Below, piece by piece: positions 18,520 through 63,387 of a DNA stretch of 64,000 nucleotides. Below the pieces are notes generated by a model. That model saw only the letters and a program-made list of their open reading frames with translations. It ran no database searches and had not been told where the DNA came from. A program made the position numbers and the translations under genes. This DNA is from Escherichia phage WPEC2, in sequence record PV691511.1; one strand, 5' to 3'. Every line of letters begins with the position of its first letter. The stretch's first letter is position 1.

Positions 18520-18715
18520 TTCTACCTCCTTCAATGCTTTGTGCCGTACCATCCCAAGCCATTAGAATGTTTTCCAATAGTTCACGAGGCTCTTTAAACC
18601 AAACTTCCATTTCATCAAGGATCTCGTCCGTGTCGTAAGTATAACCTGGAACACCAAGTTCACATTTCTTAAGATAGCTTTCTAACCAGCGGTGATAATT
18701 CTTAACCCCATTCAT
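18512..18715 (-). CDS. hypothetical protein
   Basis: 67 aa. Confidence 0.35.
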   Translation of the reverse strand: MNGVKNYHRWLESYLKKCELGVPGYTYDTDEILDEMEVWFKEPRELLENILMAWDGTAQSIEGGRNE

Positions 18716-19088
18716 ACTGTGCTACCTTTTCTTTTACCCAATCTACACGATCTTTATCATAATGTTGAGTGCCAAGGAAAAGACCATTGTGGAAACTTTC
18801 CTCACCGAAAGGATAAATTGGATCTAAACCATCTTCTTCAAACAACATTTTTAATCGATTTGATGTAGATTTCTTAGTTTCTGAGTTGTAGTTTGTGGTT
18901 ATAAGCCAATCTTCCAAACAACGACACAAACCTTGACGAGAATCCCAAGGAAAAACACAATCTCCGACAGGAGCTTGTTCCGCCCATTTCAACCAGCCTT
19001 TAAAAAAGTTATACAGTATGTAGTCTTCAGTGTAATACATTATCTCCTCCTTTACGTATACAATAACACCCCGAAGAACGGGGTGCAA
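18702..19088 (-). CDS. multicopy paralog family member (WVKxR motif family)
   Basis: 128 aa; shares PFG/PFN and RVDWVKEKV C-terminal motif with seven other ORFs in the window. Confidence 0.5.
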   Translation of the reverse strand: MHPVLRGVIVYVKEEIMYYTEDYILYNFFKGWLKWAEQAPVGDCVFPWDSRQGLCRCLEDWLITTNYNSETKKSTSNRLKMLFEEDGLDPIYPFGEESFHNGLFLGTQHYDKDRVDWVKEKVAQYEWG

Positions 19089-19091
19089 CTG

Positions 19092-19703
19092 TTATTTAAT
19101 CTGTTTAAAAATTTCGTTTGGAACGGTACCGTTTAAAATACCTTCTACGATCTCTTGTGCAGACGTGTAAGAGAGTCCAAAAGAAGCTACGCCTAAAATT
19201 GCCTCCTTCAAAGGATCTGGCAGGGGTTCAAAATTACCTGCAACAAAGCCACCTGCACAAGCAGCGCCTTCATCATCCCAGAAAACAACTGCTACATCGT
19301 TACCATGCGAAGTTGTGCGATGTGCAATAACTTCAACTTCGGTGCCTTCTTTAGGAACAGAATAAGAACTGTCCCAAGAATATCTTTCCAAATCAGGAAC
19401 AAAGATAACCTTTTCACCTACTGGCGGCAGTTCACAACGATAATACCAAGAATTTTTTTCGTTCATTGTTTTATTTTCCTCCACGTCTTCAAAAGTAACG
19501 ATCCAATCGTAGCCGTAAGAAAACGGATATTTTAGATCTAAAGAATAAGTTTGACCTAGATCGTCCTCAACAAGAACCATCCTGTCAAAGTTTGCGATGT
19601 TAGGATTATGTTTAATGATAGGGTATGTTTCCCCTACAGTAAATTGTCCCAAATGGTAAAGTTCATCTCTCCAAGTAATTTGGATATGAGTGCATTGAAT
19701 CAT
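19092..19703 (-). CDS. hypothetical protein
   Basis: 203 aa. Confidence 0.5.
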   Translation of the reverse strand: MIQCTHIQITWRDELYHLGQFTVGETYPIIKHNPNIANFDRMVLVEDDLGQTYSLDLKYPFSYGYDWIVTFEDVEENKTMNEKNSWYYRCELPPVGEKVIFVPDLERYSWDSSYSVPKEGTEVEVIAHRTTSHGNDVAVVFWDDEGAACAGGFVAGNFEPLPDPLKEAILGVASFGLSYTSAQEIVEGILNGTVPNEIFKQIK

Positions 19704-19707
19704 AAAA

Positions 19708-19980
19708 TCACCCCCAAGAAATATTTATATATCTTACAATGTTTGCACTGTCTAAAGCCATGTTTGCACCACACCCACGCTCGCGCCAGTAACTAACAAT
19801 ACCTTCGCAGATACTTTCTTGTATCTTCTTATCACTTGGCATTTCTAGTATAAGACTTGGGTTGTGGATGTTTATGTTATAATATCCTTCCTCTGCGGCT
19901 TGAGCTACCAATTTACTTACTTTTTCAAAGTACGGGGAATTAGTGGCATCTGCCATTGTTTTTAAGGTTTGTCTATCCAT
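19708..19980 (-). CDS. hypothetical protein
   Basis: 90 aa. Confidence 0.4.
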   Translation of the reverse strand: MDRQTLKTMADATNSPYFEKVSKLVAQAAEEGYYNINIHNPSLILEMPSDKKIQESICEGIVSYWRERGCGANMALDSANIVRYINISWG

Positions 19981-20378
19981 TATTCTGCCTCATCATAGAA
20001 GAAATCCAACTCTTGTTCCAGTTGTTTAACTCGATCCTTAACCCACTGTACACGTTTTTCATTAAACATGCAACGTTTTTCCTTACACTCTTGCTCAAAA
20101 GATTTTGCTGTGTTAAATGGGAAAGTTGTATCTAAGCCAGCGTTTTCAAAACTGGCTAATTGCATACCATAAACAGAATATGCTAGAGAATGCTCTGCCC
20201 GAAATTCATCACTTATATACATACGCAGACCTCGGCATAAGCCAACATCAGCGTAACCACTTTCTCTTGGAAAGAGACGGAGGTGTTCTAACCAATTATT
20301 ATAGAAATCTAAAAGAATCCTCTTACACTTCAAATCGATTGTCATAAAAAGTTTCTCCTTCATCAAACAAGTTGGCAA
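19980..20378 (-). CDS. multicopy paralog family member
   Basis: 132 aa; GLCRGL, FPFN, RVQWVKDRV motifs. Confidence 0.5.
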   Translation of the reverse strand: MPTCLMKEKLFMTIDLKCKRILLDFYNNWLEHLRLFPRESGYADVGLCRGLRMYISDEFRAEHSLAYSVYGMQLASFENAGLDTTFPFNTAKSFEQECKEKRCMFNEKRVQWVKDRVKQLEQELDFFYDEAE

Positions 20379-20745
20379 GATTGTTCACGGCAATCTGGGT
20401 GGAAAGAAGACAACTGTTTGCAGACACATAAGCACGAGCTATTTTGTAAACATAAACTTTCGTATTACAATTGTCTAGGATCGGAAGACTTTCGTCGATA
20501 GCATCTATAACACTAAACATCACATCTAAAACTTTAATGGTGAGTGTTGTATTTGTATCTTCGTAACCTTTTTCAATCAGACCTGAATAGAAGGTATAGT
20601 CCTCAACAGTTCGTCGTTTAAATTGGCGCATAAAATCGGAACCATCTGTAGCAGAATTGAACAAATTTTCAAAAAATACGTCCCATCCGGCAAAAAGGGC
20701 TGACAGCATGATTAAGTGATCTACAGATTCATTTTCTTGTTTCAT
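20323..20745 (-). CDS. hypothetical protein
   Basis: 140 aa. Confidence 0.45.
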   Translation of the reverse strand: MKQENESVDHLIMLSALFAGWDVFFENLFNSATDGSDFMRQFKRRTVEDYTFYSGLIEKGYEDTNTTLTIKVLDVMFSVIDAIDESLPILDNCNTKVYVYKIARAYVSANSCLLSTQIAVNNLANLFDEGETFYDNRFEV

Positions 20746-20753
20746 ATCCTCTC

Positions 20754-61722: not shown

Positions 61723-61995
61723 ATGGCATCATATAGCGCAACAATGATCGTAACGGGTACCACTGGTAAACCTATGAGCGGTGGCGGATCTTTCGCTAAC
61801 ATCAATATTGACGGGCGCTTATCCCTGGACGCAGCGATCGCCGTAGCGCGGGAAACATTTAAGAAAGAATGTAATTTCAACAAGCAAGATTATTTAGGTT
61901 TCGCTATTGAAAAAACCGCGCGCTTTGTTGATTATAAAAGCCCGAAAATGGTTGATACTACACTAAAAGCGCAAGATGTAGCATTTTTGCTTTAA
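61723..61995 (+). CDS. hypothetical protein
   Basis: ATG at 61723 downstream of hairpin GCGGGAAGTGGTTTCCCGC; first ~11 codons duplicated at ~47450. Confidence 0.4.
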   Translation: MASYSATMIVTGTTGKPMSGGGSFANINIDGRLSLDAAIAVARETFKKECNFNKQDYLGFAIEKTARFVDYKSPKMVDTTLKAQDVAFLL

Positions 61996-61998
61996 GGC

Positions 61999-62053
61999 TT
62001 GACATTAACGAATAATTTACTAATATGTTGCATAAGGCGGGAATAGTTCCCGC
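61999..62053 (+). promoter_or_regulatory. promoter-like motif plus 5' stem-loop cassette (plus strand)
   Basis: TTGACA (61999-62004), 16 nt, TAATAT (62021-62026), hairpin GCGGGAATAGTTCCCGC (62037-62053), ATG at 62072. Confidence 0.55.
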
Positions 62054-62071
62054 TATTTGTAAGGTGATAGA

Positions 62072-62329
62072 ATGTTTTACATCAAGTTAAAAGGTCACGT
62101 GATCGCGTTCAAAGATAATGCTTTTTACAGATTAGCAAAATATGCTTTAATCCATCCTCATTATGTTTATATAAGGGGGCGTGATGAAATAAATATCTTT
62201 GATCAAACAACATGCGAGAACATCGAGATCCGCAAGGTTGGCGTACGTGACTATCGTACATCTTTCTACCCTTGTAAGGATTCAGCAAGTCTTTTTAAAG
62301 TATGTCAATTGTTGAAAAAAGGTGGTTAA
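62072..62329 (+). CDS. hypothetical protein
   Basis: 85 aa. Confidence 0.45.
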   Translation: MFYIKLKGHVIAFKDNAFYRLAKYALIHPHYVYIRGRDEINIFDQTTCENIEIRKVGVRDYRTSFYPCKDSASLFKVCQLLKKGG

Positions 62330-62330
62330 T

Positions 62331-62888
62331 ATGGGGCGTGAATATGTGATCCAGTCTTGGGTAAAACATGAAGCAGATGATCCGCGCATCATTCCCGATC
62401 ATCTTATCGATGAATCCACGGGCTATAGCGGTGAGCAAATAGGTAACAGGTTAGCACGTAGTAACGGCAACGTAAAAGCGCGTTGTGTGCGCCCTGGCTG
62501 GCTGGCAAATGGTAACGCTGATTTATCCAGTGCGGAAGATGCGAGCGACGGCGCGAAAGATAATCCTTTGTACAAAGTTGATCCGGCTTTTCGTGTCCTG
62601 GATGAATACCCCAGCAAGATAGCGGCGCTTGATGAAGCCCTAGAAAGTAAGCGCATCACCTGGACCGCTTACAACATGGCAAAAAATGTACTTGATGGTA
62701 AATTGATTCAAGCTGAAAGAAAATTAGCCAAAATTGCAGCCATAGCCCAGGAGGAAGACGAGGAGACAACGGAAGAGGAAGAGTACGAAGAGATCCCGCC
62801 GTTGTTGTGTGTTGATGCTTTTCCTGATTATCAGCCGACAGAGGAAGAAAAAAGGATCGCGCTAGAAAACTTTGAAAATAGTCTTTGA
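62331..62888 (+). CDS. hypothetical protein with acidic C-terminus
   Basis: ATG at 62331 after AAGGTGG; ~185 aa. Confidence 0.45.
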   Translation: MGREYVIQSWVKHEADDPRIIPDHLIDESTGYSGEQIGNRLARSNGNVKARCVRPGWLANGNADLSSAEDASDGAKDNPLYKVDPAFRVLDEYPSKIAALDEALESKRITWTAYNMAKNVLDGKLIQAERKLAKIAAIAQEEDEETTEEEEYEEIPPLLCVDAFPDYQPTEEEKRIALENFENSL

Positions 62889-63036
62889 CATATCGCCGCC
62901 ACTGGCATAATATTTACCACGTAGGGCGGCAATGGTGCCGCTCATATGTGCAATGTTGCCATGATCTTAACTCCAGATAGTGAGCGGCACCATTGCCGCC
63001 CTACGTGGTAAATATTATGCCGCCACCTGGCGAACG
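62889..63036. repeat. mosaic block with two hairpin copies
   Basis: Contains segments identical to 34670-34740 and 49385-49470, each with GCGGCACCATTGCCGCC. Confidence 0.6.
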
Positions 63037-63387
63037 TCAACCACTTTTTAATCTTTTTATTCCTTCATAATCCTGAATTCTATCTAGCACCCATTGTATA
63101 CGATGTTTGTTTTTATGGCAAATATGTTTTTTATGTTCGAAGGTGTATTCCTCATAACCGCCTTCATTAAACGGGAAATTGTAATCCAATCCTGCACCAA
63201 TAAACTGGGATTTCATCTCTTGTTGTAGACGAGGTAACAGTTCATCAGGGTATGTTCCCTCTACATACTTAATCAGACATATGCACAAACCACTCGTTGT
63301 GTGACCTTCTACCTCACCAGCAAGCCAAGCTTTGTAAAACTTCATTAGACGTAAACTACTTAACGGAACATTTTTACTCTCTTGCAT
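63037..63387 (-). CDS. multicopy paralog family member; its 3' end is the source of a repeat module
   Basis: 116 aa; GLCICL, FPFNEGG, RIQWVLDRI; last ~25 codons recur many times in the arrays. Confidence 0.5.
   Translation of the reverse strand: MQESKNVPLSSLRLMKFYKAWLAGEVEGHTTSGLCICLIKYVEGTYPDELLPRLQQEMKSQFIGAGLDYNFPFNEGGYEEYTFEHKKHICHKNKHRIQWVLDRIQDYEGIKRLKSG

Follow-up and report, generated by a model that had tools for sequence, protein, structure and literature searches.

A family of seven paralogues

Here, we analysed a stretch of 64,000 nucleotides (nt) from the sequence record of Escherichia phage WPEC2 (PV691511.1), hereafter called the window, which contains a family of small paralogous proteins and arrays of repeated modules of about 77 nt, two features that an initial annotation of the same DNA had tied to each other. 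Seven full-length open reading frames (ORFs) of the family, all on the minus strand, were found at the coordinates given in that annotation (Table 1). For members 1-3, however, these coordinates delimit maximal ORFs beginning at TTG or GTG, and we propose likely ATG starts from homologues and upstream sequence. The family had been described as having eight copies, but a six-frame search of the window with a hidden Markov model (HMM) of the family returned exactly seven full-length members, the rest being short fragments inside the arrays.

Our results show that the seven ORFs belong to one protein family and are true paralogues. All of them match phrog_2510 at E ≤ 7e-26 (best 4e-31), with about 105 residues covered, and their alignment contains 15 invariant columns, including L..F, GLC..L, F..GL, PF and R..WV. 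BLASTP of the most divergent pair gave E = 1e-4, so that the shared motifs noticed from the sequence alone proved to be significant. The members are about 104-127 amino acids (aa) long and share 23-51% pairwise identity. Six of the seven are acidic, with an isoelectric point (pI) of 4.5-5.5 and a net charge of -3 to -11, while the remaining one has a pI of 7.7 and a partly chimeric tail.

Table 1 Family members, array features and module junctions in the window
Feature	Position	Strand	Remarks
Member 1, maximal ORF	18702-19088	-	TTG start; phrog_2510 E 7e-27; HMM E 1e-36
Member 1, likely coding sequence	18702-19040	-	ATG 19040, 112 aa; 112-aa homologue P0012 is 99% identical
Member 2, maximal ORF	19980-20378	-	TTG start; phrog_2510 E 3e-26; HMM E 3e-40
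Member 2, likely start	20363	-	ATG; MKEKLF..., as in homologue P0024
Member 3	22962-23288	-	phrog_2510 E 4e-31
Member 3, likely start	23282	-	ATG; MSEELL, 106 aa; AAGGAGA upstream; anhysbys gp136 homologue is 321 nt
Member 4	23721-24047	-	108 aa; phrog_2510 E 5e-31; used for structure prediction
Member 5	26954-27268	-	104 aa; phrog_2510 E 9e-29; HMM E 2e-40
Member 6	31574-31942	-	122 aa; equals anhysbys gp109 but for one residue
Member 7	63037-63387	-	116 aa; homologue of anhysbys gp108; last 7 codons chimeric
Module M5, native place	31870-31947	-	5' end of member 6: first 24 codons and 5 nt upstream
Module M6, native place	63060-63137	-	3'-proximal part of member 7
Array of ~77-nt modules	33622-34483		interpreted as assembly artefact
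Largest array of ~77-nt modules	36977-41355	both orientations	contains M5-M6 pairs, no two with the same junction triplet
Arrays of ~77-nt modules	44420-49466		unique block at 45088-45555; AAA-BBB-CCC runs, period 77
Array of ~77-nt modules	58757-59670
Junction M1|M2			native GGAG; all 8 G/A combinations, once each
Junction M5|M6			native CTC; all 6 combinations of {C,G,T} x {C,T}
Junction M12|M8			all 4 combinations
Junction M13|M16			all 4 combinations

Distribution and conservation of the family

The family turned out to be an already catalogued, though uncharacterised, group of phage proteins, PHROG 2510 / pVOG 7392, to which the early protein gp3 of coliphage N4 also belongs. These catalogue clusters, with the related PHROGs 6418, 27059 and 2176, are labelled 'unknown function' and add no mechanism. 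In phage anhysbys, a member of the genus Phapecoctavirus, the homologues gp108, gp109, gp122, gp133 and gp136 are labelled pVOG 7392, and 100% identical copies of member 4 occur in phages SF1-1 and dw-ec. The initial statement that no well-characterised family is recognisable has held up: scans of the seven members against Pfam, NCBIfam and PADLOC gave nothing above the curated cut-offs, a Pfam scan of 94 diverse relatives one by one gave nothing consistent, and no solved structure was matched. When longer homologues were scanned against PHROG for a partner domain, only tandem copies of the family domain were found, and nothing relevant was found in the literature on WPEC phages, phrog_2510/VOG7392 or N4 gp3.

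When 1.8 billion representative proteins were searched with the family profile, 1,831 clusters were obtained at E ≤ 1e-3, 870 of them at E ≤ 1e-10. Most of the cluster representatives are 100-130 aa long, some have two or three tandem domains, and the named family members are all 'hypothetical' phage proteins, e.g. of the Burkholderia phages BcepSaruman and BcepSauron. By tblastn, the family was detected in 245 phage records, including Phapecoctavirus, phi92, N4-like Schitoviridae, T7-like phages (RSB1, RHEph02/08), Bas80-like phages and others; many lytic phages of Proteobacteria carry it. In a set of 94 diverse members, C35, P72, F73 and R95 (numbering of member 4) are invariant, the cysteine belonging to the GLC motif, Pro-Phe to PF and the arginine to RxxWV, and L7, F10, Y11, G33, L34, Q61, F62, L67, N92, W98 and V99 are conserved in at least 90%. 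The corresponding core residues FY, GLC, QF, GL, PF, N and R..WV are present in the members of the window.

N4 gp3 (YP_950481.1, 104 aa) matches the profile built from the 94 members at E = 2.8e-21 and shares the GLC, PFN, CHLN and RINW motifs with the window family; the 'N4 gp3-like' proteins of Schitoviridae resemble the members in profile as well. N4 has a single gp3 copy, in contrast to the seven diverged copies of the window phage. In all three cases inspected, namely N4, an N4-like phage and a T7-like phage, the gene is located in the left-end early region: the N4 gp3 gene lies at 1214-1528, i.e. at about 1.2 kb, gp8 of phage Gutmeister, annotated as 'putative N4 gp3-like', is encoded upstream of the RNA polymerase genes, and ORF5 of RSB1 upstream of a gp0.7-like kinase gene. 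The multi-copy gene set of phAPEC8-type phages is now linked to N4 gp3, and N4 offers a tractable model for the family.

Among homologues from metagenomes, P0007 and P0008 are chimeras of gp108-type and gp109-type paralogues, and many gp109-type proteins carry the same C-terminus (QWVKDRIEDANNACIE) on variable bodies. Such chimeras may reflect natural recombination between paralogues or may be further assembly chimeras.

Predicted structure

Structure prediction, one of the checks proposed in the initial annotation, gave a confident result. The AlphaFold2 model of member 4, built from a 35-sequence alignment, consists of five helices with a predicted local distance difference test score (pLDDT) of 94.9 and a predicted template modelling (TM) score of 0.87, and describes the family as a single small all-alpha domain of about 100-130 aa. 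All matches from a fold search of BFVD were uncharacterised phage proteins that belong to this family (TM 0.8-0.87). Foldseek of the model against the PDB gave nothing below E = 2 and the sequence profile against the PDB nothing below E = 0.5; the predicted fold is thus unlike any solved structure in the PDB copies searched.

Arrays of 77-nt modules

Repeated sequence amounts to 12,167 nt of the window and is distributed over 150 segments, almost all of 77-85 nt, which form about 24 classes with up to 14 copies and lie in either orientation. Tandem Repeats Finder assigned a period of 77 in 10 of 13 rows, including runs of the type AAA-BBB-CCC. A core of 74-77 nt is invariant within each module class, and variation is seen only in 2-6 nt at the joins. 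The classes, numbered with the prefix M, pair as adjacent 77-mers that flank about 12 points of the anhysbys genome, among them M6|M5 at 40794, M3|M4 at 4376, M11|M17 at 20843, M10|M14 at 34410 and M18|M15 at 37561. We counted 38 native-type junction haplotypes in the window, none of which is repeated, and complete factorial sets of alleles were seen (Table 1). In the parts of the related phage WPEC1 that were fetched, seven of the eight M1|M2 haplotypes occur, once each and at other places, while a pattern scan of IMG/VR for the M1|M2 junction gave no loci. The breakpoints (e.g. 38594-38600, 37285-37291 and 47300-47310 in the window) are clusters of 2-4 polymorphic positions, mostly G/A or C/T, that often lie in purine-rich, Shine-Dalgarno-like sequence (GGAG, GAGGAG) and are present in all allele combinations.

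Fragments of family genes are indeed part of the arrays, as had been noticed from the sequence alone. Module M5 occurs ten times, nine copies beyond the native one starting at 34171 (reverse complement), 37210, 37443, 37836, 38370, 39902, 40814, 40889 and 47603; module M6 occurs nine times, with eight copies beyond the native one starting at 33857, 37288, 37522, 38446, 39978, 40970, 47682 and 47757. Both had been taken for exact gene ends. This applies to M5, the 5' end of member 6, but not to M6, because the last seven codons of member 7 in the window (IKRLKSG) come from a non-native join. Its C-terminus reads ...DYEGIKRLKSG in the window versus ...DYEGEKNDK in anhysbys, and the native end is recovered when M6 is put back next to M5. 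In related phages the two genes are neighbours (gp108/gp109 in anhysbys), the gp108 homologue (member 7) lying directly upstream of the gp109 homologue (member 6) and overlapping its start, whereas they are 31 kb apart in the window. A single breakpoint in the AAGGAGAG ribosome-binding region has M5 and M6 as its two 77-nt flanks. The upstream flank of member 6, from 31946 on, is likewise a non-native join, at which collinearity with anhysbys and with the records of WPEC1, WPEC4 and WPEC6 ends.

The two modules are frequently copied, as stated initially, but four modules derived from unrelated genes have more copies, which leaves M5 and M6 in fifth and sixth place; the remaining modules, too, stem from unrelated genes and intergenic cassettes. 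Since these four are more abundant, and since the copies of a module vary in number with its junction haplotypes, the family has no special relation to the mosaic. Binding of the members to repeat DNA, which had also been proposed for testing, is argued against by the mostly acidic character of the proteins.

Comparison with related records

The window belongs to a phage of the WPEC type, within Phapecoctavirus. Its positions 18000-31946 are 100% identical to the Escherichia phages WPEC1, WPEC4 and WPEC6, which were obtained from hospital wastewater in Thailand with E. coli EC3.18 as host. With about 100 Phapecoctavirus genomes, each some 150 kb long (e.g. Mt1B1_P17, anhysbys), they share 96-98% identity. 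Past position 31946, the stretch continues with tail and helicase genes in WPEC1, with ribonucleotide reductase genes in WPEC4, and with small genes followed by the terminase in WPEC6. From there on, the block order of the window differs from that in PV659873.1, PV682947.1 and PV763039.1, and these three also differ mutually, although the blocks common to the WPEC records are 100% identical. Relative to anhysbys, the unique blocks of the window between 32 and 63 kb are scrambled in both order and orientation. Each of 106 other phage records has the 153-nt unit M1+M2 at a single place, but each WPEC record has it at 16-19, and M8+M12 follows the same pattern, being multiplied in the WPEC records alone. 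The WPEC records measure 155-161 kb and hence exceed their relatives of about 150 kb by 5-11 kb, which is about the amount of array DNA.

A gene that is split in the window illustrates the kind of joins involved. The two pieces of a vWA-TerF-like gene lie 35 kb apart (in the block 1-6118 and at 41279-41798) and have one 77-mer in common (6042-6118 = 41279-41355); joined at this 77-mer, they give an ORF of 264 aa. WPEC4 has this native join, its sequence containing the window blocks 1-6118 and 41279-44496 contiguously with an overlap of exactly 77 nt. A TelA-family ORF at 43392-44591 (Pfam E 4e-33) has an N-terminal extension that is read out of array modules, and the MTSPFLKAATGG... sequence within module M3 appears to be where it starts natively.

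Origin of the arrays

Where, then, do the arrays come from? As far as sequence alone can show, the paralogue family is real but does not seed the repeats, and the copies of its gene ends in the arrays are almost certainly an artefact of assembly. We consider it probable that the part of the window from 32 to 63 kb is a misassembly of a de Bruijn graph with k = 77. The value 77 is the largest default k of the assembler SPAdes for reads of 150 nt or more. In such a misassembly, contig-sized blocks would have been joined in non-native order, and each variant edge at some 12 small sites, polymorphic or prone to error, would have been written out once into one 'genome'. The window is probably either a fourth record of the source that gave WPEC1, WPEC4 and WPEC6 or a further path through their graph. 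The mosaic agrees with this in its module size of 77, in the 77-nt overlap between blocks, in the single use of each variant edge, in the split gene that is restored at the common 77-mer and in the confinement of the arrays to records of one laboratory. Haplotypes that occur only once and in factorial sets are expected from the edges of a k = 77 graph, not from duplication or recombination. Some points weigh against a misassembly: it is derived from properties of the sequence and not from reads, standard SPAdes output normally does not concatenate vertices that lack an overlap, and no software step that concatenates k-mer-sized pieces can be named. The polymorphisms at the breakpoints could come from a mixed phage population or from systematic sequencing error.

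The initial annotation had instead suggested that the family seeds the repeats, which would make the mosaic real DNA, generated by a recombination or copying process that uses the conserved ends of family members and other genes. Besides the window, three deposited WPEC records contain arrays, several breakpoints coincide with gene junctions and ribosome-binding sites, and a serine recombinase gene at 20754-21431 is located among the paralogues, all of which would suit such a process. We nevertheless regard it as very improbable, since the modules are as long as a default assembler k, lie in either orientation and form AAA-BBB-CCC runs, and since each junction haplotype appears once, as part of full factorial sets. 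Moreover, about 100 related phages lack any array, and the WPEC records order identical blocks differently, thereby breaking essential gene modules, splitting genes and giving them junk termini, and are longer than their relatives by about the array DNA. The arrays are thus neither inherited in relatives nor consistently ordered among the WPEC records. For the family this means that its fragments, as the flanks of one of about 12 breakpoints, here between adjacent paralogues, do not seed a repeat-generating process. CRISPR-like arrays were dismissed for want of a repeat-spacer structure, read-length units because module start positions are fixed and not random, natural duplication because every copy has its own junction haplotype, and a diversity-generating retroelement was judged improbable, the variation being confined to 2-4 nt at module joins and not adenine-specific.

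If the 32-63 kb part is a misassembly, about 12 kb of the window as well as the gene order between 32 and 63 kb should not be read biologically. ORFs within the arrays would then be chimeras (e.g. 39382-39642, 40117-40377, 40662-41051, 44844-45170 and 45791-46063), while member 7, the vWA-TerF gene and TelA would be real genes with chimeric ends. The deposited genomes of WPEC1, WPEC4 and WPEC6 probably need re-assembly.

Possible function of the family

Why should one genome carry seven diverged copies of such a gene? Our best guess, a tentative one, is that the members are early host-directed binding proteins serving host takeover or anti-defence. They would be expressed early and would bind a host protein in order to neutralise or redirect it, and the seven copies per genome may have arisen by duplication and diversification under host pressure. 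Still somewhat more doubtful is the extended version of this idea, according to which the family forms a new class of early host-directed proteins with a novel fold and an invariant Cys/Arg site, each paralogue countering a different variant of the host target. That the 77-nt arrays are real DNA, to which we give hardly any credence, is far less likely than such a new class. Against a host-directed function it has to be held that neither a partner domain nor a fold match goes with it, that an early role is read from gene position in N4, Gutmeister and RSB1, and that the invariant cysteine and arginine could equally mark a catalytic or ligand-binding site.

The latter would fit a small enzyme or ligand binder, e.g. 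a thiol-dependent modifier or a sponge for nucleotide signals. Invariance of C35 and R95 and near-invariance of Q61 and N92 among the 94 diverse members speak for such a protein, as do the tandem fusions of two and three domains, which oligomeric sponge-like proteins could evolve. We think this unlikely, as none of the solved chains in the PDB copies searched matches by fold or sequence, His90 is not kept in all paralogues and the conserved residues could be purely structural. A DNA-binding regulator is less probable still. As a helical bundle resembling a helix-turn-helix protein, it would control early or middle phage transcription, and the early region of N4 does contain the genes of two transcription cofactors, gp1 and gp2. 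The predicted model, however, has no beta wing, six of the seven members are acidic, and the invariant C, PF and R form no recognisable helix-turn-helix signature. Under the preferred reading as host-directed binding proteins, a large family of over 1,800 clusters, phage-specific by its named members and with a confident model, becomes a target for screens for host-takeover or anti-defence activity.

Neighbouring features

Two further sets of paralogues are found near the family members. Three tandem proteins of 145-151 aa are encoded at 29232-30598 (BLASTP E 4e-15 and 5e-4), and a C-terminal domain is common to a 184-aa protein at 22353-22907 and a 99-aa protein at 28905-29204 (E 5e-11). The serine recombinase mentioned above (minus strand) has a Resolvase N-terminal domain (E 5e-18) and is called a DNA invertase in relatives; nothing links it to the arrays. 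An assignment of the ORF at 57491-57919 as DUF2829/Tad2-like was dropped, as there was no Pfam match. At 50623-51165 (minus strand), a NADAR-domain protein (E 1e-35) adjoins a 486-aa protein at 51713-53173 (minus strand), which has repeated CapR homology domains and is annotated as an endonuclease in relatives.

Between small genes on the minus strand at 32000-36600 and 59000-63000, there are natural intergenic cassettes of about 80 nt, each with a TTGACA-type promoter and a GC-rich stem-loop (GCGGCACCATTGCCGC or GCGGGAAACCACTTCCCGC). The cassettes are about 65% alike and also occur in anhysbys. They differ from the 77-nt modules made of coding fragments and do not involve the family. Promoter/stem-loop cassettes known as PeSLs are located between small early genes of T4-type phages, and the cassettes of the window may resemble these elements.

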